This document shows, piece by piece, positions 9,768-62,357 of a stretch of 64,000 nucleotides of DNA. The stretch comes from a virus (taxonomy: Duplodnaviria > Caudoviricetes). A program made the position numbers and the translations under genes. The notes under the pieces were generated by a model. That model was given only the letters and a program-made list of their open reading frames with translations, did not search any database and had not been told where the DNA came from. Where the stretch lies: positions 1 to 64,000 of IMG/VR virus record IMGVR_UViG_3300020172_002590; one strand, written 5' to 3'. Each line of letters starts with the position of its first letter. Position 1 is the stretch's first letter.

Positions 9768-9818
9768 AAGGTGAGCAAATCTCATTCGGGTGGCCCCCGA
9801 AAAAGACTAATTGGCTCC

Positions 9819-9858
9819 TTGCTCTCTTGCTCTCTTGCTTCCTTGCTCTCTTGCTCCT
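9819..9858 (+). repeat. 5 x 8-bp tandem repeat (TTGCTCTC)
   Basis: ttgctctc ttgctctc ttgcttcc ttgctctc ttgctcct. Confidence 0.85.
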
Positions 9859-9983
9859 TTATCCGTCATGATTGTGGGGATTCCGTGATATGATGTATTC
9901 CGATATGCTATACATCATCGGATACTTTGTAACAGTGAGCGTTTTTGCCACCGTGATATTTAAATCATTTAAGGATTAGAGAT

Positions 9984-10875: not shown

Positions 10876-10904
10876 TTGTGTTGGGTCGCCTATTGGGATA
10901 GTAT
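10876..10904 (+). promoter_or_regulatory. cassette promoter P1
   Basis: TTGTGT-N17-TAGTAT. Confidence 0.7.
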
Positions 10905-10947
10905 TTACTTATCGGGCGGGGCGGTCTCGCCCGATAGAAAGGCAGTA

Positions 10948-11250
10948 ATGCGTTCAGTAAATATGGCAATTGAGGAGGGTCTGGAAAGTGTTCTTTACAC
11001 TGTCGGACACGAATCAGGTCGCCGTTCCGATATTGTCCACTTCCTTTACAAGGAAGATATGGAGACTTATGTCCATTCAATCCTTGTGCCCTTGCACTTG
11101 GAAGATGATGGATTAGACCCCGATGACACCACCTCAATGTTCGCCAAGTATGACAAGTACGGCAACTATGAGGTCATCGTCAATATTGACTCTAAGACAT
11201 GGATTAAGAGTTTCAAGGTCACTGCTACCGAACGGTTCATTCAATACTGA
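10948..11250 (+). CDS. hypothetical protein (cassette 1)
   Basis: AGAAAGG SD before ATG 10948, downstream of P1. Confidence 0.7.
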   Translation: MRSVNMAIEEGLESVLYTVGHESGRRSDIVHFLYKEDMETYVHSILVPLHLEDDGLDPDDTTSMFAKYDKYGNYEVIVNIDSKTWIKSFKVTATERFIQY

Positions 11251-11260
11251 TACCCCGCTT

Positions 11261-11328
11261 GCCCCGCCCGCAAGGGCGGGGCAAGTCCCCCCAATGAGAC
11301 CCCGCCCGCAATGCGGGCGGGGTCTTTC
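11261..11328 (+). terminator. tandem GC-rich hairpins/terminator
   Basis: GCCCCGCCC-GCAA-GGGCGGGGC and AGACCCCGCCCGCA-A-TGCGGGCGGGGTCT-TT. Confidence 0.65.
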
Positions 11329-11649
11329 CATTCCCGCCCCATTCACGCCCGCCCCGCAAACGGCTGCATCGATCGTGCTAGGACCGGGACCGAGCTCTAC
11401 ACCCTGCCATATAACTGTACGCATTTATGGGAATTGAGTATGGTCTCTTTATGTGGTTCTCTACACCACCCCAAATAGAGGCTACAAATTATGGGGATTG
11501 AGTATACGTCAAATTATGGGAAACGCTGGCCTTTCAAATTATGGCAGCCTATTTTTTCGAGGGTGTAGGGAACAAAGGTACGACTTTCTTACACCCTTTC
11601 GTCTGACGGTGTATGTGCGAGAAATTTCAACACAAATTCTGAACAATAG

Positions 11650-11678
11650 TTGTGTTTCCCGATAGTTTCCTGTAATCT
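11650..11678 (+). promoter_or_regulatory. cassette promoter P2 (leaderless)
   Basis: TTGTGT-N17-TAATCT, ATG 6 nt downstream. Confidence 0.75.
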
Positions 11679-11684
11679 AACACT

Positions 11685-12194
11685 ATGACAAAGCGTCAAG
11701 CCAAAGCAGGTAATGGTCGCGTGGTGACCAATACCCCCAAGAGTGCGAAGGGTCAAAGCACAGTTACCAAGTCCGCTGTATTGCGTCACATTGCGACAGC
11801 ACGAACAGTGAACCTTAGTCGTGGAGTAAAGGCACACTACGACAACGAAGGCACACAGCGTTTAGCGGAAGCCATTGTCAAGTCATTCCGTATGCCAACA
11901 CTCACGGAAGCGAAACTTGCCAAGAAAGGCAAGGACATGCCCAAGAGCGCACAAGACGGAGCAATGCGTAGAGAGTTTGCTGTAGCACACAAGGCTATCG
12001 CCATAGACATCTCTATCATTCTCGGAGAGAGAAAGGGTGGACAGATTACACACAACCGCCCTGAGAACAACCTACACATGAAACTCGCAGGTATTGCCGT
12101 AGCAATGGGGCTACCTGCTAAGACTTTCTATCCCGTTCGTTCTGAAGCCGTTCGTGACGGTGAAGTGCCTACGGTGTACATAGTACGCCGATAG
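11685..12194 (+). CDS. basic hypothetical protein, paralog of 14212..14694
   Basis: shared YDNEG, MPT, RREFA, ILGE, H.RPEN, AMGLPA motifs. Confidence 0.85.
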   Translation: MTKRQAKAGNGRVVTNTPKSAKGQSTVTKSAVLRHIATARTVNLSRGVKAHYDNEGTQRLAEAIVKSFRMPTLTEAKLAKKGKDMPKSAQDGAMRREFAVAHKAIAIDISIILGERKGGQITHNRPENNLHMKLAGIAVAMGLPAKTFYPVRSEAVRDGEVPTVYIVRR

Positions 12195-12216
12195 AGCGTT
12201 CATAATCCCCCCATTG

Positions 12217-12246
12217 GAGAGCCTACCCGAAAGGGTAGGCTCTCTC
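12217..12246 (+). terminator. intrinsic terminator
   Basis: GAGAGCCTACCC-GAAA-GGGTAGGCTCTC. Confidence 0.75.
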
Positions 12247-12264
12247 TGTGTGTTATGGTCTGGG

Positions 12265-12302
12265 GTGGTGTGACAAAGCCCCAGGGGGCTTTGTCACACC
12301 AC
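12265..12302. repeat. hairpin element H1 (divergent, perfect 18-bp IR)
   Basis: GTGGTGTGACAAAGCCCC-AG-GGGGCTTTGTCACACCAC. Confidence 0.75.
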
Positions 12303-12364
12303 TTCGTATGAGCGTGTCTCTATGAATAAATTTAGTGCAAATTCCAAAAATAATCAGAGAATAG

Positions 12365-12393
12365 TTGTGTTTCCTACTTTTCCGTGTTACATT
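12365..12393 (+). promoter_or_regulatory. cassette promoter P3 (leaderless)
   Basis: TTGTGT-N17-TACATT, ATG 6 nt downstream. Confidence 0.75.
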
Positions 12394-12399
12394 CAGGGT

Positions 12400-12624
12400 A
12401 TGAGAAACTTTTCATACATCACACCAACACTTGACCACAACCTATTCCTGATTTCATTCGCCCGCCCAATTCGCATTCAGAGCAAGTATCTTGACTGCAT
12501 TGTGCGTAAGCGTTTCAATGACGCAATGTTGCGACACTACTCAGGTACTGTCATCATTTTCAATGTGTCTCAAATTGACGAGCGCAATTTCCGTGTTCTC
12601 TGTCTCGTTACGCCAACAGCGTAG
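12400..12624 (+). CDS. hypothetical protein (cassette 3)
   Basis: leaderless ATG 12400 in frame with ORF 12322..12624. Confidence 0.7.
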   Translation: MRNFSYITPTLDHNLFLISFARPIRIQSKYLDCIVRKRFNDAMLRHYSGTVIIFNVSQIDERNFRVLCLVTPTA

Positions 12625-12640
12625 CGAGATAGAGAGCCAG

Positions 12641-12679
12641 GCAGGTGTAACGCCTTGGCATAGCCAGCGTTACACCTGC
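12641..12679. repeat. hairpin element H2
   Basis: GCAGGTGTAACGC-CTTGGCATAGCCA-GCGTTACACCTGC. Confidence 0.85.
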
Positions 12680-12740
12680 GTCTATGTAGTCACTCACTCA
12701 GGCAAATTTAGTGCAAATTCTGAAAATGTTTCTAGAAAAC

Positions 12741-12768
12741 TTGCTATTCCAAATTTTTCAGTTATACT
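12741..12768 (+). promoter_or_regulatory. cassette promoter P4 (leaderless)
   Basis: TTGCTA-N16-TATACT, ATG 7 nt downstream. Confidence 0.65.
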
Positions 12769-12775
12769 CTTACCT

Positions 12776-13060
12776 ATGAAGAAATACAACTCATTCCAAA
12801 TGACACTTCTACCCGTTCGTGAAAACGAAGCAGGTCGTGACATTTACACCGTAGCCGTAACCATTCCCAACTATGAGTTGGGCGAGGACATTCATTTTCT
12901 CGGACTTTCCGCTCGTCAGGCGTTCATTGACGCAACGGAATTCATCAACGGAATTATCGGGCGTATGTGCGGTTTCTGTAGCGGTGTCACCACTGAAGGC
13001 GATGAGACATTCCGTAGCGCGGGCATCTGCCAGCCCTGCTACGAGAAAATCTCACTCTAA
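12776..13060 (+). CDS. hypothetical protein with C-terminal CxxC...CxxC zinc finger (cassette 4)
   Basis: MKKYNSF...CGFC...CQPC. Confidence 0.75.
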   Translation: MKKYNSFQMTLLPVRENEAGRDIYTVAVTIPNYELGEDIHFLGLSARQAFIDATEFINGIIGRMCGFCSGVTTEGDETFRSAGICQPCYEKISL

Positions 13061-13080
13061 GAAAAGGACAGCACACAGGA

Positions 13081-13112
13081 GAGCGGGTCGCAAGACCCGC
13101 TCTTTTCCTTTT
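13081..13112 (+). terminator. intrinsic terminator (identical copy at 13544)
   Basis: GAGCGGGTC-GCAA-GACCCGCTC-TTTT. Confidence 0.85.
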
Positions 13113-13116
13113 CCGG

Positions 13117-13155
13117 GCAGGTGTAAGAGTTCGGCATAGCCGTTCTTACACCTGC
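13117..13155. repeat. hairpin element H3
   Basis: GCAGGTGTAAGAG-TTCGGCATAGCCG-TTCTTACACCTGC. Confidence 0.85.
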
Positions 13156-13244
13156 TTGTCTAAACACAACATAGAACCAGCTTTTAGTGCAAAAAATTAG
13201 TTGTAGTGTACAAATACTTTTTTCAAGTTTTTTTGGAATTGGGG

Positions 13245-13272
13245 TTGTGTTTGCCTTTGGATTTGTTATGCT
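13245..13272 (+). promoter_or_regulatory. cassette promoter P5
   Basis: TTGTGT-N16-TATGCT. Confidence 0.65.
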
Positions 13273-13310
13273 GTGTGTATGGCAATAGTGCCAGAGTGAA
13301 AGGAACTCCA

Positions 13311-13517
13311 ATGCGAGTCTTTGATAGCCCCGACAACAAACTGTCCGACATTCTTGACCAAATGCAGGCAGAAGCCGTTGCTTGGGAGAGCGTATTCTCA
13401 CCACAGTTCATTGCAGGAATGATTTACGCCTGCGAGTGCCTGCGTAACAGCGCAAGCAACATGAAGGGCAACGGCGTTCTCTTGAACGAAGCAGTCCTAG
13501 TTCGCCCAAAAAAATAG
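13311..13517 (+). CDS. hypothetical protein (cassette 5)
   Basis: AAAGGA SD before ATG 13311. Confidence 0.7.
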   Translation: MRVFDSPDNKLSDILDQMQAEAVAWESVFSPQFIAGMIYACECLRNSASNMKGNGVLLNEAVLVRPKK

Positions 13518-13543
13518 AAAGGAGAGTTTTTCTTCTGCGGGAA

Positions 13544-13574
13544 GAGCGGGTCGCAAGACCCGCTCTTTTGCTTT
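13544..13574 (+). terminator. intrinsic terminator (copy of 13081)
   Basis: GAGCGGGTC-GCAA-GACCCGCTC-TTTT. Confidence 0.85.
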
Positions 13575-13578
13575 CCTG

Positions 13579-13617
13579 GCGGGTGTAGATCTATTGGCTC
13601 CGCCGATCTACACCCGC
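13579..13617. repeat. hairpin element H4
   Basis: GCGGGTGTAGATC-TATTGGCTCCGCC-GATCTACACCCGC. Confidence 0.85.
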
Positions 13618-13656
13618 AGGTACGAAATAACAACACATAAAGATTTGAGTATGTGT

Positions 13657-13685
13657 TTGTAATTGCCTTTAGTAACTGATAGGGT
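13657..13685 (+). promoter_or_regulatory. cassette promoter P6 (leaderless)
   Basis: TTGTAA-N17-TAGGGT, GTG 6 nt downstream. Confidence 0.6.
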
Positions 13686-13691
13686 GAAGCC

Positions 13692-13904
13692 GTGACAAAC
13701 ACACACACGCCGACTGAAGTTACAGAGGCAAAATCAGCACCCCGCTACTACGAAGAATTGGTCAAGGACTTAGTTGAGACCCTTGCCCTCGGAGACTTTC
13801 AGGAACTGTTCCTGAACTTCTTGTCTCACTACGAGGACAACCTTGAGGTTCTCAAGACCGCCCGTATCTGCTACGGAGACCTCATAGCCGAAATCTACGG
13901 CTAA
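13692..13904 (+). CDS. hypothetical protein (cassette 6)
   Basis: leaderless GTG; followed by GACCCCCTCTC...GAGAGGGGGTC hairpin. Confidence 0.7.
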   Translation: MTNTHTPTEVTEAKSAPRYYEELVKDLVETLALGDFQELFLNFLSHYEDNLEVLKTARICYGDLIAEIYG

Positions 13905-13960
13905 GACCCCCAGCCCCCCCAGCGGACCCCCTCTCAGAGCGAGAGGGGGTCTTGCTATTG

Positions 13961-14001
13961 GCGGGTGTAGACGCTCGGCTCCGCTCGACTCCTACACCCG
14001 T
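13961..14001. repeat. hairpin element H5
   Basis: GCGGGTGTAG-N21-CTACACCCGT with central GCTCCGC. Confidence 0.8.
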
Positions 14002-14067
14002 GTAATAAAAGCAAATATACCTTTATGTAGAGTATACAAATTCCAATTGATATTGACTTTGCTGCAG

Positions 14068-14107
14068 GCGGGTGTGGTGCAAAGCAAACGCAGTGATCCA
14101 CACCCGC
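14068..14107. repeat. hairpin element H6 (inverted near-copy of H10)
   Basis: GCGGGTGTGG-TGCAAAGCAAACGCAGTGAT-CCACACCCGC. Confidence 0.8.
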
Positions 14108-14176
14108 GAGCTTGATACGATTGTTCCGAGCGTTTTTAGTGAAAAAATGTAATCAGAAAAAAAATTGTGTTAGTAG

Positions 14177-14205
14177 TTGTATTTACTAATGGAGTGCGTT
14201 AGTAT
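14177..14205 (+). promoter_or_regulatory. cassette promoter P7 (leaderless)
   Basis: TTGTAT-N17-TAGTAT, ATG 6 nt downstream. Confidence 0.75.
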
Positions 14206-14211
14206 GTCCCT

Positions 14212-14694
14212 ATGGCATCAACACCTAAGACTACTGCTAAGCAGGGTCGCAATACCAAGTCCACCCCGACCGCAAAGGTCACCTACACGGCAGTAATGGC
14301 GCACATCGCTAGTGCTCGTAGTTTCCGCCTCGCACAAGGCGCAAAGGCTAACTACGACAATGAAGGCGCACAACTACTCGCAAAGGCTGTCGTGAGAGCG
14401 TCTGCTATGCCAACAATGGCGAGTGAAGGTATCACTACCGACAAGGCTCGCCCAATGGCTCAGGCTCGCCGTGAGTTCGCTCGCAAGCGCAAGGCTCACC
14501 TACTCAATGTTTCCGACATTCTCGGTGAAGGTAAGAACGGCGAGATTATCCACGACCGCCCCGAAAATACCATTCGTATTCGCCTTGCGTCTATTGCTAA
14601 GGCAATGGGACTGCCAGCAGACACCTACTACGCCGTGAGAGCGAATGAGTACGCCGTAGGCGACATTCCGCAAGTGTTCATCGTTCGCAAATAG
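14212..14694 (+). CDS. basic hypothetical protein, paralog of 11685..12194
   Basis: colinear similarity over the full length. Confidence 0.85.
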   Translation: MASTPKTTAKQGRNTKSTPTAKVTYTAVMAHIASARSFRLAQGAKANYDNEGAQLLAKAVVRASAMPTMASEGITTDKARPMAQARREFARKRKAHLLNVSDILGEGKNGEIIHDRPENTIRIRLASIAKAMGLPADTYYAVRANEYAVGDIPQVFIVRK

Positions 14695-14759
14695 CGAACG
14701 CCTAACCGCCCCCCCCCAATGAAGCCCCGCTCGTCTGAGCGGGGCTTCACATCGTATGG

Positions 14760-14798
14760 GCGGGCGTAAGATCTGCGCAAGCTTGATCTTACGCCCGC
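14760..14798. repeat. hairpin element H7
   Basis: GCGGGCGTAAGATC-TGCGCAAGCTT-GATCTTACGCCCGC; preceded by TGAAGCCCCGCTC...GAGCGGGGCTTCA hairpin. Confidence 0.85.
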
Positions 14799-14887
14799 GT
14801 GTAATATTACATTGAGACCTTTATGTTTAGTACATAATTTCAAATTATGATTACCTAGAAAAAATAGAAACATTTTTGGAATTGGGG

Positions 14888-14916
14888 TTGTGTTTCTCTA
14901 TTAGTTTGGTTAGTAT
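14888..14916 (+). promoter_or_regulatory. cassette promoter P8
   Basis: TTGTGT-N17-TAGTAT. Confidence 0.75.
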
Positions 14917-14954
14917 GTACATACAAGGCGCAAGCCCCTAACGAAAGAAAAAAA

Positions 14955-15245
14955 ATGAAAGTTCCACCGCTAAAAGTGCAGACCATTGTCCACCTAGAAA
15001 TGCCGTACGACATGTATCTTTTTGTTCTGTATTGCATGGCAACCTACAACAACCCAACAGATGAAGACGCAAAAGCGCTACATAAGAATGCTTGGGAGTT
15101 TGCAGAGTCATTGGGCGCAGAGTCACCTCACCATTTCATTGCAGAAAATGTTCCGTTTATGAAGAACTACTGCACTCAGTTGTTGCAACTGTCAAGCACA
15201 GCAAAAGAGCAAGCAGACCTCGCTTACTCGGCTCTGTATCGCTAA
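14955..15245 (+). CDS. hypothetical protein (cassette 8)
   Basis: ORF between P8 and TGGGGGCAG...CTGCCCCCA hairpin. Confidence 0.7.
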   Translation: MKVPPLKVQTIVHLEMPYDMYLFVLYCMATYNNPTDEDAKALHKNAWEFAESLGAESPHHFIAENVPFMKNYCTQLLQLSSTAKEQADLAYSALYR

Positions 15246-15281
15246 TCCGTTGGGGGCAGGTAACACTGCCCCCATAAGCGG

Positions 15282-15320
15282 GCAGGTGTAAGGCTCTTGC
15301 TTTGCGAGCCTTACACCTGC
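15282..15320. repeat. hairpin element H8
   Basis: GCAGGTGTAAGGCTC-TTGCTTTGC-GAGCCTTACACCTGC. Confidence 0.85.
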
Positions 15321-15513
15321 GTCTGTAATGTTACACGATCAGAAAAATTGAGTGTGTATATGTAATATTACTTAGCCTATCTTTATGGATGTAATATTAC
15401 AATCCTGAACTTTATGGAGCTGTGTAATATAAGAGATCCTGTGTAACATAAGCTGTAATTTTAGAAAACCCGTGTAATACTAGAAAAAAACCTGAAAAAA
15501 CTTGGAAAGGTAG

Positions 15514-15542
15514 TTGTGTTCCTTAGGTAGTTCCTGTATCTT
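15514..15542 (+). promoter_or_regulatory. cassette promoter P9
   Basis: TTGTGT-N17-TATCTT. Confidence 0.7.
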
Positions 15543-15607
15543 TATAAATACCAAAGGGAAACGCCCCGATGGTGCGGAAAGTATCCGCTAGTTAGATAGG
15601 AAAGACA

Positions 15608-15898
15608 ATGGACTTTGAGTTTATTGACGAAAACGACATTCAGGCTGTACGCCGTGGACGTAAGTCCACAGCCCCCGCCGAATTGGTAGATGCGTTTGCC
15701 AAGATGCCAAAGGGTAAGGCTATTCGCCTTACAGGTCTACGCCAAGACCCAACTAGCCCTGAATATAAGAATGACAAGGCAACGGTCTCTGCCACCATTC
15801 GCACAGCAGGCAAGTTGGCAGGCGTAGCGGTCTCTATCAGTTGGTCACCCGATGGTGTTCCACAGGTAAAGACCAAGATGGTCAAGGCTAAGAAGTAG
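15608..15898 (+). CDS. small basic putative DNA-binding protein, FEFIDE family
   Basis: MDFEFIDE.DI..V.RGRKS...ISWSP.GVPQV; AGGAAAG SD. Confidence 0.85.
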   Translation: MDFEFIDENDIQAVRRGRKSTAPAELVDAFAKMPKGKAIRLTGLRQDPTSPEYKNDKATVSATIRTAGKLAGVAVSISWSPDGVPQVKTKMVKAKK

Positions 15899-15985
15899 CA
15901 CCCCCCGCTACCAGCCTTGATAGGGGCTAGGGTGTCTGTCATCACCCTAGCCCCGCCCCTTACCCCGCCCGCCCTAATCAGGCGG

Positions 15986-16025
15986 GCGGGCGTAATGAAG
16001 TCGTTCCTTTGTTCATTACGCCCGC
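15986..16025. repeat. hairpin element H9
   Basis: GCGGGCGTAATGAA-N12-TTCATTACGCCCGC. Confidence 0.85.
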
Positions 16026-16100
16026 TTTTCTAATCGTAACATTACACACAAATTTAGTATGAATTTGTAATATTACATAGAGTAAATCCTGGAGCTTGAT

Positions 16101-16199
16101 CGTGTAATATAAGAGATCGTGTAATATAAGATCGTGTAATAATAGACCGTGTAACTTTATGTCAAGCTGTGTAACATAAGGGATCCCGTGTAACATAAG
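16101..16199 (+). repeat. six iteron-like direct repeats YGTGTAAYAWAAG
   Basis: copies at 16101, 16118, 16133, 16148, 16168, 16187; similar cluster at 15422-15482. Confidence 0.8.
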
Positions 16200-16246
16200 A
16201 AACGGAGATACTTGCACACTACAACTATTATTTTTTCCGTTTGACG

Positions 16247-16275
16247 TTGTGTTTCCCTATTGGCTCGGATAATCT
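16247..16275 (+). promoter_or_regulatory. cassette promoter P10
   Basis: TTGTGT-N17-TAATCT. Confidence 0.75.
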
Positions 16276-16280
16276 AATAC

Positions 16281-16432
16281 TTGTCAGATTGACACTCGGT
16301 TACGGGGTTCGGTTAGGCAGGTGATTTTCACCTAGCAGTTTCCGCCCGTTTCGGTTCTGACCTAGCAAGAGTGAAGGGTCGTAGTAGGCGCACCATAATC
16401 CCCTACAAGTCACCATTGGCAATGGTGATTAT
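16281..16432 (+). ncRNA. candidate structured 5' leader RNA
   Basis: nested stems GTCAGA/TCTGAC, ACGGG/CCCGT, AGGTGA/TCACCT, GTAG/CTAC, TCACCATT/AATGGTGA; possible CACTC/GAGTG pseudoknot. Confidence 0.45.
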
Positions 16433-16463
16433 TCAAAAAAAACTTTCAAGAAAGGCTTTCATA

Positions 16464-16766
16464 ATGGATTTTGAATTTATTGATGAAGGCGACATTGAAG
16501 GCGTAAAGCGTGGTCGCAAGTCGCAGGTTCCACAAGAACTCATTGACTTGTTCAAGGCTATCCCAGCAGGCAAGGCAGTCCGACTGTCTGAGTTTGCAGG
16601 TGACCCAACAGACCCCGATTACAAGACACACAAGCAGAACGCAGGTTCTACTATCCGTCAGGCTAGTAAGCAGGCAGGCATTGAAATCCGTATTTCATGG
16701 TCGCCCGCAGGCGTTCCGCAGGTGTCTCGTAAAGCGCCTAAAAAGGTCGCCAAGTCTGCCAAGTAA
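16464..16766 (+). CDS. small basic putative DNA-binding protein, FEFIDE family
   Basis: start MDFEFIDEG at 16464 with AGAAAGG SD; close paralog of 15608..15898. Confidence 0.85.
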   Translation: MDFEFIDEGDIEGVKRGRKSQVPQELIDLFKAIPAGKAVRLSEFAGDPTDPDYKTHKQNAGSTIRQASKQAGIEIRISWSPAGVPQVSRKAPKKVAKSAK

Positions 16767-16828
16767 TTAGGCAGGCGTAGCGCACATACCGCCTAGAGTG
16801 CCGAAGCACTGCAACGGTATGGAAAATG

Positions 16829-16870
16829 TAACCCCGACACACTCGCCAAGTGTGTCGGGGTTCTTTTTTT
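16829..16870 (+). terminator. intrinsic terminator
   Basis: AACCCCGACACACT...AGTGTGTCGGGGTT plus T-run. Confidence 0.85.
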
Positions 16871-16882
16871 GCCCGCTTACGG

Positions 16883-16922
16883 GCGGGTGTAGATCACTGC
16901 GTTTGCTACGCACTACACCCGT
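16883..16922. repeat. hairpin element H10
   Basis: GCGGGTGTAG-ATCACTGCGTTTGCTACGCA-CTACACCCGT. Confidence 0.85.
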
Positions 16923-17043
16923 GTAATGTTACACATCTTTATCGTAAATTATAATACATATTTGTAATCACATTATAGCTAATATATTTTATTACCTTTA
17001 TGTAATCTTTATGGGGGTATGTAATATTACATACCATCGCGCA

Positions 17044-17082
17044 AATAAAAAAAAAGAAAGGGTAGCATTTCTGCTACCCTTT
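17044..17082 (-). terminator. intrinsic terminator for 17117..17431
   Basis: AAAGGGTAGCA...TGCTACCCTTT with T-run on minus strand. Confidence 0.75.
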
Positions 17083-17116
17083 CCCGGACTCTTAGTGAAC
17101 TATTTGTTTTATTTAT

Positions 17117-17431
17117 TTAGGAAACTTTTTTCGCGTATGGGACATTCTTTATGTCCCAAGTAATGCGAACCTTTTTCCAACCTGCAATTTTTGCCTGATT
17201 ACGAATAATCGCGGAATTTGCAGCCTTAGCAGTTTTCTTATCTTCCGCCGTAACAAATTCGTCACCCAATGCCAAGTTTGCTACCTTGACAATTTGACCA
17301 ATTTTTGCCTTAGCAAAAAACTCAACCATCTCAGGAATAACGACAGCCTTACGCCCACGCTTTACTGATTCAATTTCTGATTCTTCAATGAACTCAAATG
17401 AGAATCCATTTTCTTCGTTTTTTGGAGCCAT
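17117..17431 (-). CDS. small basic putative DNA-binding protein, FEFIDE family (inverted cassette)
   Basis: FEFIEESEIESVKRGRK...IRNQAKIAG..VRITWD...VP. Confidence 0.85.
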   Translation of the reverse strand: MAPKNEENGFSFEFIEESEIESVKRGRKAVVIPEMVEFFAKAKIGQIVKVANLALGDEFVTAEDKKTAKAANSAIIRNQAKIAGWKKVRITWDIKNVPYAKKVS

Positions 17432-17617
17432 TTTTCTCTCTTTTCTTTTAGTTATTTGGCTATTTATTTGACACGTTCACCGAGTCATTTATCACGATAT
17501 CGGGGAGAATGGCGAACAACTACCGATAAATAAAAAAATATAAAAAAGATCCATTTCTCAACAAAATACGCGATCTAATCCAGGATGTAATATTACAGGG
17601 GTTGTAATATTACACGG

Positions 17618-17655
17618 ATGGGTGTAAGTGAGTCGGTACCCGAACTTACACCCAT
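17618..17655. repeat. hairpin element H11
   Basis: ATGGGTGTAAGT-GAGTCGGTACCCGA-ACTTACACCCAT. Confidence 0.8.
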
Positions 17656-17828
17656 TTGTAATATTACACGATACTATAAAAATATAGTGTGTAATTTAAG
17701 AATTGCTACCTTTATTTCCATCTAATCGCGTATCTAATCCTGGATCTAATTCTTTATCTTTATATACTTTATGGAACCCCCAAACCTTTACAAATTATGT
17801 GAACTTCTAAAAAAGCTATTTCCGCACG

Positions 17829-17857
17829 TTGGAAATCTAATTTCTACACGGTAGGAT
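17829..17857 (+). promoter_or_regulatory. promoter P11 with ATCTAATT spacer motif
   Basis: TTGGAA-N17-TAGGAT. Confidence 0.55.
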
Positions 17858-17919
17858 ATCTATATGGTGAGAAATATCTCAATAAACCAAATCCAATTCA
17901 TAACCGAAAGGAAAATCTA

Positions 17920-18408
17920 ATGTCTCCGATTGAAAACTTATTCAATGAACCAACAAAAGCTTTAGCAATTATTGCACATCTTTCAAAAAATCACGAAATT
18001 GTTGCTACAACAATTACTGAACTTCATATGCAATTAATTAATGCAACTTCTACTGCAAACCAATTAGATAACTTTTTGCAAAAGTTAAATGATATGCAAA
18101 TCCCAAAAAATATGTTTAACAATTTGGAGGCTGCTATTTCTGAACGTCAAAAAATGGAAAATCTTTTAGACAATAATGAAATTAGTCGTGCTGATTTAGA
18201 CCTATACATAATGGAAACCTTTTCTTTAACTGATGACCTTTGTTCAATTGGACAACAATTTGTAACACTTGTTGGAAAAAATGACCAATTTAATCTTCAA
18301 AACATTGTTGTTAACTTTGACACAATTTTTGTAAAACTATATAACCTTTTTCACGAAGTTGCTTTAACCACATTTGAACTTGTTAAAGAATACGGTTCTC
18401 TTAACTAA
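17920..18408 (+). CDS. hypothetical helical protein
   Basis: AAAGGA SD; followed by terminator. Confidence 0.75.
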   Translation: MSPIENLFNEPTKALAIIAHLSKNHEIVATTITELHMQLINATSTANQLDNFLQKLNDMQIPKNMFNNLEAAISERQKMENLLDNNEISRADLDLYIMETFSLTDDLCSIGQQFVTLVGKNDQFNLQNIVVNFDTIFVKLYNLFHEVALTTFELVKEYGSLN

Positions 18409-18425
18409 TAACTAATAAATAACTA

Positions 18426-18455
18426 AAAGGGTAGACGTTTGTCTACCCTTTTTTT
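18426..18455 (+). terminator. intrinsic terminator
   Basis: AAAAGGGTAGAC-GTTT-GTCTACCCTTTT plus T-run. Confidence 0.8.
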
Positions 18456-18856
18456 ATGCCCAAATGCCGGGCGTGTAATATTACACCATTTGTAATATTA
18501 CACGGTGATGGACAAATTGTAGTATGTAATATTACAGTGCTATCTTTATGAAAAACTAAAACTAAATTCTAATCTAAATCCAAATCCTAACATCCCGGCA
18601 CCTTTATGGCGGGGCAATAGGCTTACTAATACTACGTCTGATACCTGATCTATTCCTAGAGGGTATTGACTACCTATAGATAGGTATTACAGCATTGTAA
18701 TTTGCACATTTATAGCCTCAAAACACACACTAAAATTCTCACAAATAAAAACCGCCTGATTTATGAGCATTTTACTGCCTTTTTGATTGATTTTATAAAC
18801 AATTAGTTTGTTTTTTTATATAATTAGTAACATTTTCTCACCTTTATGGGGGGTAC

Positions 18857-18890
18857 TTATCCACAATATTATCCACAATTCGGGGGATAA
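18857..18890. promoter_or_regulatory. tandem DnaA boxes
   Basis: TTATCCACA at 18857 and 18869; degenerate inverted box GGGGGATAA at 18882. Confidence 0.6.
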
Positions 18891-19109
18891 GTCTTATTCT
18901 GTATAGAGATAGATAGAGTATACAATGTCTGATCGCGCACCAGTTTATCTAATATATTTCTACCTTTATTTAGTACGCTAAACAAGCCCATTATACAATT
19001 CTGGATATAAATCGGAAGTAATTCCTTAGCACATCTCCGTATGCCTTAAAGGAATCTATTTACCTACCTAATCTATATCTAATCTATACTTCTTCTATCT
19101 AGGTATCTA

Positions 19110-19250
19110 TTAAATATCTAGACCGGTTTTTTCAGAATCCATTATTTCTTCCAATCCCCTAGCCATAGAGTTATGGAGAATCTTCCTCAGTTTCCGAACC
19201 ATTCTCCATGTGTAATACCAGAGTCTTATCCTTCTATAAAGACTTATCAT
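19110..19250 (-). CDS. small hypothetical protein
   Basis: 46-aa ORF with AGGAGG SD. Confidence 0.5.
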   Translation of the reverse strand: MISLYRRIRLWYYTWRMVRKLRKILHNSMARGLEEIMDSEKTGLDI

Positions 19251-25217: not shown

Positions 25218-25219
25218 AG

Positions 25220-25292
25220 CGCTTTCAGTAAGATTCGAACTTACAACCTACTGATTAGAAGTCAGTTGCTCTATCCATTGAGCTATGAAAGC
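25220..25292 (-). tRNA. tRNA-Arg(UCU)
   Basis: GCTTTCA acceptor, ACTGA-CTTCTAA-TCAGT anticodon arm, GTTCGAATC T-loop; no encoded CCA. Confidence 0.92.
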
Positions 25293-25960: not shown

Positions 25961-26158
25961 ATTTCGCTCCTTTAGTTGTTGGGTTTACGATTCTGTTATA
26001 CACAGATAACGCATTAGCATAAGCTAAGGTTGCGAAACGAGGTCATAGCATATTTATCTACAATTCAATGCTCACTCGCTTCACTTACATTTATTCATAG
26101 GCATCACCTTTCCTTTAAAAAACAGATAAATACAATTATATCACTTAATGCAATATAG

Positions 26159-26232
26159 TGCCGAATATAGGAATTGAACCTATTCAAAAAACTTATAAGG
26201 TTTTCTCCGTCAAACCGTTCGGACCATTCGGC
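26159..26232 (-). tRNA. tRNA-Ile(UAU), non-canonical G8
   Basis: GCCGAAT/ATTCGGC acceptor, AAAAC-CTTATAA-GTTTT anticodon arm, GGTTCAATTCC T-arm. Confidence 0.8.
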
Positions 26233-32166: not shown

Positions 32167-32463
32167 TTAAATTTTGTTGTTGTCATTAGTTTTTACTACC
32201 TTAATAGAAACATCTTTGGCAATAACGCTACGTTGTGCAAGAATTTTACTTCTTTCTTTTGGAGTTGTGCCTCCCCAAATACCAAAAGCTTCTTCATTTT
32301 TTAAAGCATATTCTAGACATTCCGCTCTCACAGAACAAATCTTACAAAAAGCTTTAATTTCAGCAGATTGCTTTGCTGAACCTTTTACCCCAGGTTCAGG
32401 GTAAAACAATTCTGTATCTTGACCAAAACATGCAGCGTTATTACGCCAAGTTTCATTATTCAT
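32167..32463 (-). CDS. whiB: WhiB-family Fe-S transcription factor
   Basis: WRNNAAC...FYP...CKICSVRAECLEYAL...FGIWGGTTPKER. Confidence 0.93.
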   Translation of the reverse strand: MNNETWRNNAACFGQDTELFYPEPGVKGSAKQSAEIKAFCKICSVRAECLEYALKNEEAFGIWGGTTPKERSKILAQRSVIAKDVSIKVVKTNDNNKI

Positions 32464-62116: not shown

Positions 62117-62357
62117 CTTCCTTAGATGCTCTTTTCCAAATCGTGTTGAGGTAATCATACTCTGACATACCTGCAACAACTCCTACAAAATAATCATTTT
62201 CTAATGCCATTATTAGGCATTCTTTTTTAACATTACATCTCGCACAGCCAGATTTTGCATATTCAACATCGTTAAGATCATAAGACAGCCATTTGTTAGC
62301 AAACTTATCGTTAGTACAAACTGCCTCATCTCTCCAACTACTTTGTTGTTGCATCAT
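62055..62357 (-). CDS. WhiB-like protein
   Basis: WRDEAVC...CARCNVKKECL...GVVAG. Confidence 0.75.
   Translation of the reverse strand: MMQQQSSWRDEAVCTNDKFANKWLSYDLNDVEYAKSGCARCNVKKECLIMALENDYFVGVVAGMSEYDYLNTIWKRASKEDESNWRTDNSTLSRLLQKAQ

Follow-up and report, generated by a model that had tools for sequence, protein, structure and literature searches.

The 64,000 nucleotides (nt) analyzed here, referred to as the window, are bases 1-64000 of G000, an IMG/VR virus record of 81,457 bp with a completeness rating of 78%. Between its rightward and leftward gene blocks lies an island, from ~10876 to ~18540, in which a palindrome, present in 12 copies, sets apart 12 small open reading frames (ORFs), one per slot; most of the ORFs come with a promoter-like motif and with a hairpin that resembles a terminator. 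The palindrome is conserved, has strict Watson-Crick symmetry, and marks slot borders in all intergenic orientations. Whole slots have been inserted, deleted, or replaced between relatives and among natural population variants, and the junctions fall within the repeated module at the slot border. With moderate confidence, we interpret the island as a hyperplastic region of small genes that is shuffled in a manner similar to the promoter-early stem-loop (PeSL) regions of T4-type phages, in which the palindrome would be a DNA-level boundary and recombination would be driven by homology, with no dedicated recombinase. The island was compared with those of the related genomes G001, G002, G003, G004, and G005, of which G001 and G004 are rated 100% complete, and with further loci that carry L-numbers.

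The palindromes are each ~41 nt long including flanking bases and all lie within 11558-17656, with the consensus GGCGGGTGTA(A/G)…(C/T)TACACCCGC. The pattern GGTGTR-N14-30-YACACC had 10 matches in the window versus 0.04 expected, a number reached in 0 of 100 shuffles, and two GGCGTA/TACGCC variants (14759 and 15985) raise the total to 12. No palindrome of the same type was found outside the island in the 81-kb record, and in five related records the palindromes were restricted to one island each. These counts bear out the preliminary description, which had recognized about 12 single-gene cassettes punctuated by a conserved hairpin. The element was given there as 38-41 bp and the island as 10876-18455; the element itself stands at ~41 nt with its flanking bases, and the end of the island has been corrected to ~18540. 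Literature searches with motif strings and for phage intergenic stem-loops did not find the element described, the only matches to the motif strings being unrelated primers and a Shewanella regulon motif. Searches of INPHARED phage DNA with the island, a 20-kb block, and the palindrome plus flank gave nothing useful.

Related islands were gathered by a pattern scan of IMG/VR and by protein-guided scans of IMG/VR and metagenome contigs, and 78 distinct palindrome copies were collected across a clade of uncultured freshwater phages. At least one palindrome was present in 29 of the 39 metagenome loci encoding the small protein family F1 described below; paired AT-rich TGTAATATTACA sites substitute for it in the clade L033-L039, and the base is a variant one in L063. 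Watson-Crick pairs are present at positions -3 to +4 of the base in 76-78 of 77-78 copies, with coupled changes from T-A to C-G (17), G-C to A-T (19), and C-G to T-A (13), and the core is 36-38 nt long in 70 of the 78. Among the 35 copies of equal length, 94.5% of cells were paired compared with 78.9% after shuffling (0 of 500 shuffles as high), both-sided changes affected 74 cells and one-sided changes 2, and pairing fell to 24-44% when the partner was slid. The two strands fold equally well (mean -22.1 versus -22.0 kcal/mol, Wilcoxon p = 0.36; 11 versus 14 G·U pairs), the stems contain no extrahelical bases, and copies are found in tandem, convergent, and divergent intergenic regions alike. 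Strict symmetry, conserved outer sequence, constrained length, and presence in every spacer orientation together point to a putative DNA-level element rather than a one-strand RNA structure.

The smaller palindrome TGTAATATTACA has 10 exact copies in the 81-kb record, all within 14800-18536, and 14 copies when up to one mismatch is allowed, versus 0.42 expected. The small palindromes vary by sub-clade (TGTAATATTACA, TGTAAGnTTACA, and CTAACGTTAG), whereas the base of the large palindrome is constant, and the two may therefore represent two different recognition specificities.

It is also conceivable, if unlikely, that the large palindrome works at the RNA level, as a second bidirectional terminator or insulator or as an RNase III-type processing site that isolates the slot transcripts, with cassette exchange as a by-product of the repeats. 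A GC hairpin precedes each palindrome of the window by 3-30 nt, and since several of these first hairpins have no T-run, read-through into the palindrome is plausible. The palindrome stems are 13-18 bp long, and stems of this length are sufficient for double-strand-specific RNases. Folding in both transcripts would also select strict Watson-Crick pairs, as observed. However, a mere hairpin needs no sequence conservation, and the outer 10 bp of the palindrome are conserved across phages whose small palindromes differ. Some copies are located in divergent promoter regions (HP11 of the window; 5287 in G004) where no transcript end is expected, the paired TGTAATATTACA sites that stand in for the palindrome in L033-L039 would form weak RNA hairpins, and no Rfam family reached threshold in the stretch from 10 to 20 kb of the window.

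The units that change between genomes are the slots. The flanks of the island are syntenic with G001, the closest full-length relative, at 37-80% amino-acid identity, whereas the content of the island differs. In the comparison with relatives, the genes g1 and g3-g6 (numbered along the island) were seen in the window alone. Between its homologs of g8 and g9, G001 in turn carries ~2.4 kb with extra genes and three palindromes, compared with a single spacer and one palindrome in the window. Similarly, L048 lacks one slot of G003 and has one additional slot that is not in G003, L043 has one slot replaced by unrelated sequence, and L052 has ~3 kb with three extra palindromes compared with 0.8 kb in G004. 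In three-way alignments, the switch points fall in the TGTAA motif right behind the palindrome or inside the small palindrome ~45 nt ahead of the large one; other junction ends fall at the end of a TGTAATATTACA, in the first 7-12 nt of the palindrome, or in a terminator. The preliminary description had also proposed that genes are captured and reordered. Gain, loss, and replacement are all observed, but the genes shared by the window and G001 are collinear, so that reordering with respect to this closest full-length relative is not supported.

Natural variants of the window itself show the same pattern. When contigs of four sequencing runs from four studies were aligned to the window, those of two runs from two studies had ~0.5 kb extra at 13103-13127, with a junction overlap of 25 nt consisting of the terminator T-run and the 5' arm of the palindrome. 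In the contigs of two other runs from two other studies, 17669-18538, which contains g12, was missing, and both ends of the deletion were at TGTAATATTACA. Separately, an ambiguous back-joint from 14956 to 9664 in contigs of runs X11 and X14, 5.3 kb back and with 12 other letters between the joined ends, is recorded only in an auxiliary table; a duplication, a circle, or a relative with its genes in another order could account for it.

A total of 79 internal homology breakpoints was obtained from the aligned relatives. Thirty-one were set aside (10 in palindrome-free loci and 21 in L010, L006, and L009), leaving 48, of which 43 are in islands. Within the islands, 23 of the 43 were at most 40 nt and 34 at most 100 nt from a palindrome, compared with 5.7 and 11.6 under a uniform null; the observed values were reached in 0 of 5000 draws. 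Most in-island breakpoints are thus near a hairpin, with no single fixed position and with the 21 breakpoints of L010, L006, and L009 elsewhere.

Several points weigh against our interpretation. The null was uniform, while palindromes are intergenic, where surviving breakpoints are expected anyway; by a rough intergenic-only estimate, ~40% would lie within 40 nt, and 23 of 43 is then not clearly an enrichment. The same events were counted in several loci, and TGTAA/TTACA is so dense in the spacers that breakpoints there may be coincidental or an effect of alignment extension. The 21 that were set aside in L010, L006, and L009 fall in the flanking gene block, with the nearest palindrome 1.8-5.5 kb away, so mosaicism arises without need of the palindrome. 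The empty slot retains two palindromes, which argues that its deletion did not occur by crossover between palindromes. An RNA hairpin that folds in the transcripts of both directions would likewise be expected to show strict Watson-Crick symmetry. Finally, the functions given to the promoter-like and terminator-like motifs, and the binding of a protein to the palindrome, are predictions from sequence.

In the explanation that we favor, the slot border would be a reusable module made up, in order, of a GC terminator-like hairpin, the 41-nt palindrome, TGTAA-type palindromes or repeats, and a promoter-like motif with a -10 element of the form TAnnnT, often of leaderless type. The palindrome may be a DNA-level protein-binding boundary or operator-like site, and the slot changes would result from homology- or microhomology-driven recombination or template switching between repeated modules. 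Such turnover would need no dedicated site-specific recombinase, and the PeSLs of T4-type phages are thought to work likewise. This PeSL-like shuffling is preferred because slots are the units of change, the junctions vary within the module, and no known site-specific enzyme was found in the 4 records searched. The palindrome itself may serve as a boundary or operator bound by a protein, insulate transcription in both directions, or be a hotspot of recombination.

The island proteins give few clues to their functions. Those of g1-g10 had no Pfam or PHROG match above noise, and g1 and g4 had no relatives in IMG/VR. Two families of paralogs are present. F2 consists of g2 and g7, which are 47% identical, and F1 consists of g9, g10, and the minus-strand g11, which are 40-56% identical and share an invariant RGR motif. 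The 129 representative relatives of F1 are all unannotated. No recognizable fold or family was found for F1 with an AlphaFold model (predicted local distance difference test, pLDDT, 77.5), Foldseek against the PDB, a PDB profile search, and the ESM Atlas; a Pfam scan of 40 family members gave no match, and a tblastn search found nothing. The F2 model (pLDDT 74) had no Foldseek match. F2 was also considered as a Rep3 winged-helix protein, which was rejected with Atlas rows at template-modeling (TM) scores of 0.36-0.39, below the threshold. Neither family had a fold or family match to any nuclease or recombinase. The window, G001, G003, and G004 each have two plus-strand copies and one minus-strand copy of F1, G005 has the mirror image, and two copies were found in G002. 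Of the 6 genome types compared, 5 have the minus-strand paralog; the unit at 17117-17431 that had been described as inverted is indeed a minus-strand ORF, but this is an ancestral arrangement common to the relatives and not a rearrangement. The island genes are assumed from their position and size to be early genes.

The copies of the palindrome at 14067 and 16882 are related to each other in an inverted manner: the interior of the former is the reverse complement of that of the latter (90% over 39 nt), and the flanks are unrelated. In addition, the loop of an orthologous palindrome is flipped between two collinear genomes at 92% identity, the only flip among 11 same-orientation comparisons inspected. 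The flipped loop and the inverted paralogous copy imply that recombination happens within or between palindromes.

Such flips might be expected of a dedicated recombination system, in which the palindrome, the TGTAA half-sites, or both are recognized by an unrecognized phage recombinase or structure-specific nuclease that captures and excises cassettes as in an integron. The architecture is attC-like, with a conserved base and a variable but paired interior; the conserved 5' base of the palindrome or a TGTAA motif recurs in the junction overlaps; and the uncharacterized F1 family, with three paralogs, is always found among palindromes. However, Phage_integrase (PF00589), Resolvase, and Y1_Tnp (PF01797) had 0 matches in all 4 records searched (G000, G001, G002, and G004), two of which are rated complete. 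The control search with PF00589 was positive in 14 of 14 genomes, and controls for other recombinase families were also positive. No tyrosine or serine recombinase and no Y1 HUH enzyme is thus found beyond the window either, in agreement with the preliminary description, which had seen no recombinase in the window. Moreover, crossover positions vary between events, the palindrome has neither extrahelical bases nor strand asymmetry, slots have promoter-like motifs of their own, relatives keep the genes that they share in collinear order, and neither F1 nor F2 matched a nuclease or recombinase. We therefore consider a dedicated system very unlikely. Of the two platforms that the preliminary description had named, the integron-like one is not supported by this absence of recombinases, the varying crossover points, and the slots' own promoter-like motifs; the T4 PeSL-like one is, by the hyperplastic region, the reused modules, the whole hairpin-bounded slots that differ, and the breakpoints in the hairpin/TGTAA module.

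A more specific form of this idea is that an undescribed phage protein for DNA binding or recombination recognizes the palindrome and the TGTAA half-sites and drives slot capture, loss, and exchange, in an integron-like process of lytic actinophages without the known recombinases. The candidate for this role is F1, with two paralogs on one strand and one on the other, and we regard the proposal as quite improbable. If it were true, the elevated G+C content of the island could be the trace of very frequent recombination.

The inverted pair at 14067 and 16882, with unrelated flanks, might also suggest a selfish miniature palindrome, similar to repetitive extragenic palindromic (REP) sequences or miniature inverted-repeat transposable elements (MITEs), that spreads through intergenic spacers and is functionless for the phage; the many copies and conserved ends would fit such an element. 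In contrast, orthologous copies hold their positions and keep their own interiors by compensatory change at 50-90% genome identity, each intergenic region has just one copy, the rest of the ~100-kb records is free of them, and no Y1 transposase was found in the 4 records. A selfish origin is therefore extremely unlikely.

The other components of the module were evaluated in the window. The motif TTGTGT-N16-18-TAnnnT occurs 9 times versus 3.3 expected, with 1 of 100 shuffles reaching 9, and 7 of the 9 lie within 10876-16275 on the plus strand upstream of ORFs. A generic TTGACA/TATAAT scan gave 13 sites compared with 17.2 in shuffles, i.e., no enrichment, so that a promoter function is best regarded as putative. 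The TTGTGT motif is not common to the relatives and thus cannot be used as a marker for the clade. Terminator-like sites number 15 versus 7.8 in shuffles, and several GC hairpins are without a T-run. The distance from a palindrome to the next promoter-like motif, counted from the sequence, is 27-221 nt. Regulatory parts are reused between unrelated genes, as had been noted earlier, with identities of 92% over 37 nt, 83% over 36 nt, and 74% over 54 nt. The order of promoter, ORF, terminator, hairpin, and TGTAA repeats given in the preliminary description holds in most slots, the promoters being predicted ones. The empty unit that it reported is also present: the palindromes at 13960 and 14067 are separated by 64 nt, with no plus-strand ORF between them. 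In relatives, slots hold one to three genes.

The first slots are arranged as follows, with genes and expression signals up to g10 on the plus strand. A motif scan found a promoter-like TTGTGT-N17-TAGTAT (10876-10904) upstream of g1 (10948-11250; alternative start 10963), which codes for a 100-aa ORFan with no family and no IMG/VR relative; two GC-rich terminator-like hairpins (11257-11326) and the degenerate palindrome HP1 (11558-11599) follow. The promoter-like motif at 11650-11678 is of leaderless type, with the ATG of g2 (11685-12194; 169 aa, F2, the paralog of g7) 6 nt past the -10, and after g2 there are a terminator-like hairpin (12216-12245) and HP2 (12263-12304), a GGTGTGA variant with a perfect 18-bp stem. 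The ATG of g3 (12400-12624), a 74-aa ORFan, is also 6 nt past the -10 of its promoter-like motif (12365-12393), and HP3 (12640-12680) closes the slot. A promoter-like TTGCTA-N16-TATACT (12741-12768), with the ATG 7 nt past the -10, precedes g4 (12776-13060), whose 94-aa product contains CxxC…CxxC and has 6 metagenome homologs at 65-99% identity. The terminator-like hairpin after g4 (13077-13106) shares 92% identity with that at 13540 across 37 nt, and HP4 (13116-13156) is at the site of the ~0.5 kb extra at 13103-13127 in natural variants. Two more ORFans follow, g5 (13311-13517; 68 aa), with a promoter-like motif (13245-13272), a terminator-like hairpin (13540-13569), and HP5 (13578-13618), and g6 (13692-13904; 70 aa, GTG start), with a terminator-like hairpin (13924-13952).

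HP6a (13960-14002) is the left edge of the empty slot, and HP6b (14067-14108) is the copy whose interior is the reverse complement of that of HP10. Next are a promoter-like TTGTAT-N17-TAGTAT (14177-14205), the ATG of g7 6 nt past its -10, g7 itself (14212-14694; 160 aa, F2), and a terminator-like hairpin without a T-run (14720-14749). HP7 (14759-14799), one of the GGCGTA/TACGCC covariants, is followed by TGTAATATTACA. The promoter-like motif at 14888-14916 belongs to g8 (14955-15245; 96 aa), which has a G001 homolog at 61% identity and is followed by a GC hairpin without a T-run (15251-15274) and HP8 (15281-15321), whose interior resembles a G004 copy in 10 of 13 central bases. An array of TGTAAT-type palindromes and GTGTAAyAT direct repeats (15324-15483) and a promoter-like motif (15514-15542) precede g9 (15608-15898; 96 aa), the first of the three F1 paralogs, with an RGRK motif. 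After its GC hairpin (15923-15954) are HP9 (15985-16026), the other GGCGTA/TACGCC covariant, and TGTAATATTACA with at least six GTGTAAyAT repeats (16066-16199).

The promoter-like motif at 16247-16275 is followed by a ~190-nt leader and by g10 (16464-16766; 100 aa, F1), a terminator-like hairpin with a T-run (16822-16870), and HP10 (16882-16923), which lies between the convergent g10 and g11. The minus strand carries the terminator-like hairpin of g11 (17056-17083) and g11 itself (17117-17431; 104 aa), the AT-rich F1 paralog conserved in relatives. Between the divergent g11 and g12, HP11 (17617-17656) and three flanking TGTAATATTACA copies occupy 17586-17668, the left end of the natural 870-nt deletion. 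On the plus strand, g12 (17920-18408) codes for 162 aa, is AT-rich, and is the gene absent from contigs of two runs. The island is completed by a terminator-like hairpin with T-runs on both sides (18425-18452) and by a group of TGTAATATTACA palindromes (18472-18536), two of them paired and hairpin-like (18472-18504) and the third at 18525-18536, where the natural deletion has its right end.

Some further sequence features were observed in and around the island. The ~190-nt leader upstream of the second F1 paralog (16276-16463 of the window; 10735-10911 in L005) is conserved in G001, with long blocks identical to the window, one of 26 nt and several of 8 nt, more than in the surrounding spacer. 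Its consensus fold has 24 pairs, 3 with compensatory changes, and no Rfam match; it is possibly a cis-regulatory RNA. AT-rich non-coding DNA at 17570-17750 and 18550-19110 contains ATCTAATC-type short repeats, and gene direction and cumulative GC skew turn there, which makes this stretch a candidate for a replication origin or a divergent control region. Ahead of the island, CTCTTGCT-like units form a short tandem run at 9815-9860 of the spacer. Downstream of g1, a long spacer has four AAATTATGGG(A/G)-type motifs at 11400-11550, two of them followed by ATTGAGTAT, and the similar TTTAGTG/TTGAGTAT boxes are found after most palindromes.

The G+C content of the island is 44-50%, and that of third codon positions (GC3) in its genes is 0.49-0.63 compared with 0.21-0.46 elsewhere in the genome, which has ~33% G+C overall and a GC3 of 0.21-0.36 in the majority of its other genes; g11 and g12, the last two island genes, are AT-rich. 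The rise at 10900-17000 was also seen in every relative examined (L005, L010, L026, L027, and L028), and the high G+C is thus a property of the region and not a sign of recent import.

The phage has a G+C content of ~32-36% and codes for a DNA polymerase III alpha subunit, a DnaB-type helicase, a class II ribonucleotide reductase, a C5 methyltransferase, several glycosyltransferases, and a terminase. Two WhiB-like genes (32245-32448 and 62157-62336 of the window, both on the minus strand) are conserved, with two per record in all 4 related records; in a control search across 14 reference genomes, WhiB was found in Corynebacterium only. Genes of this type mark actinobacterial hosts. The terminase is 42% identical to its nearest relatives, the terminases of large Streptomyces siphoviruses. 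The sequencing runs that contain the island are freshwater, lake, aquatic, and unspecified metagenomes, with a small share in four wastewater runs. Because of the WhiB genes, the Streptomyces-phage-like terminase, and the freshwater runs, the host is probably a freshwater actinobacterium. TAnnnT -10 motifs, start codons 6-7 nt past the -10, and terminator hairpins without T-runs are typical of actinobacteria, and all of these traits are seen in the island. A 3066-aa ORF beyond the window (72124-81324 of G000, minus strand; 10124-19324 in L025) matches tape-measure families in residues 1080-1216 only; as a tape measure, it would be of unusual length. It had been considered as an N4-like virion RNA polymerase reading hairpin promoters, which was rejected with the tape-measure match and no Pfam family. 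The tape-measure match indicates a long non-T4 tail, and together with the terminase it speaks against the T4-like myovirus lineage; as part of our interpretation the phage would be, again with moderate confidence, a lytic-type freshwater siphovirus. The window also contains tRNA-Arg(TCT) (25219-25292) and tRNA-Ile(TAT) (26158-26232) on the minus strand.

Hyperplastic regions hold most of the unknown early genes of a phage and are the usual search ground for host-takeover and anti-defense functions, and their turnover has been documented mainly for T4-type phages. Our results would extend the PeSL logic to abundant uncultured freshwater phages with probable actinobacterial hosts. The palindrome offers a simple sequence handle to find and delimit such islands in metagenomes and a defined DNA element for binding and insulation assays, and the natural variants allow slot gain and loss to be followed. 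Should the palindrome turn out to be a recombination hotspot or a boundary bound by a protein, it would account for the movement of single genes, together with their own expression signals, from phage to phage in the absence of a recombinase.

Among known systems, integrons resemble the island in having serial single-gene units, some of them empty, a cassette content that varies, and an imperfectly conserved palindrome with a constant base and, inside, variable sequence that is still paired. The core sites of attC read GTTRRRY. The island palindrome, with its base GGCGGGTGTA/TACACCCGC, is symmetric and has no GTTRRRY cores, extrahelical bases, or strand asymmetry, and the 4 records searched contain neither IntI nor any tyrosine recombinase. 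Furthermore, integron cassettes are promoterless, share one orientation, and are joined at one fixed site position, whereas island slots carry their own promoter-like motifs (7 TTGTGT-N-TAnnnT), the arrays include minus-strand genes, and the crossover points vary. REP sequences and bacterial interspersed mosaic elements (BIMEs), with their REP-associated tyrosine (RAYT) transposases, are likewise short extragenic palindromes after genes, in many copies and either orientation. The palindrome differs from them in that its copies lie within one 7-kb phage island, no Y1/RAYT gene is present in the 4 records, and orthologous positions are conserved.

Repeated intergenic elements are also found in other actinobacteriophages. 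The stoperators of cluster A phages are described as many repressor sites across intergenic DNA, and they are asymmetric and of 13-14 bp, whereas the palindrome is symmetric. Cluster K mycobacteriophages contain extended start-associated sequences (ESAS), paired 17-bp inverted repeats with a 4-13 bp spacer that are conserved per gene family, lie directly upstream of the 13-bp start-associated sequence and the start codon, and are given no known function in that report (Pope et al., 2011; PMC3203893). As far as this account describes them, they are inverted repeats of a size similar to the palindrome. The palindrome, however, adjoins the terminator hairpin of the upstream gene (3-30 nt) and not a start codon, and its arms covary, whereas ESAS arms are conserved in sequence.

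The closest likeness is to the PeSLs, which are associated with modular gene shuffling in T4-type phages (Arbiol et al., 2010, PMC2839356; Comeau et al., 2014, PMC4122927). As far as the cited accounts go, small ORFan genes in both systems form a hyperplastic region that lies between conserved modules. In the PeSLs a repeated module of terminator stem-loop and promoter flanks each gene, to which the predicted motifs repeated between unrelated genes of the island may correspond, and in both systems the endpoints of indels and replacements fall within the repeated modules, with no dedicated recombinase involved. The phage studied here is of siphovirus type with a probable actinobacterial host instead of a T4-like myovirus, and the motif sequences are unrelated. 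The island also adds TGTAA-type arrays and a strictly paired 41-nt palindrome with a conserved base, separate from the terminator. Interpreted in this way, the island would follow the same shuffling logic as the T4 PeSLs, in a new lineage and with a conserved palindrome added.

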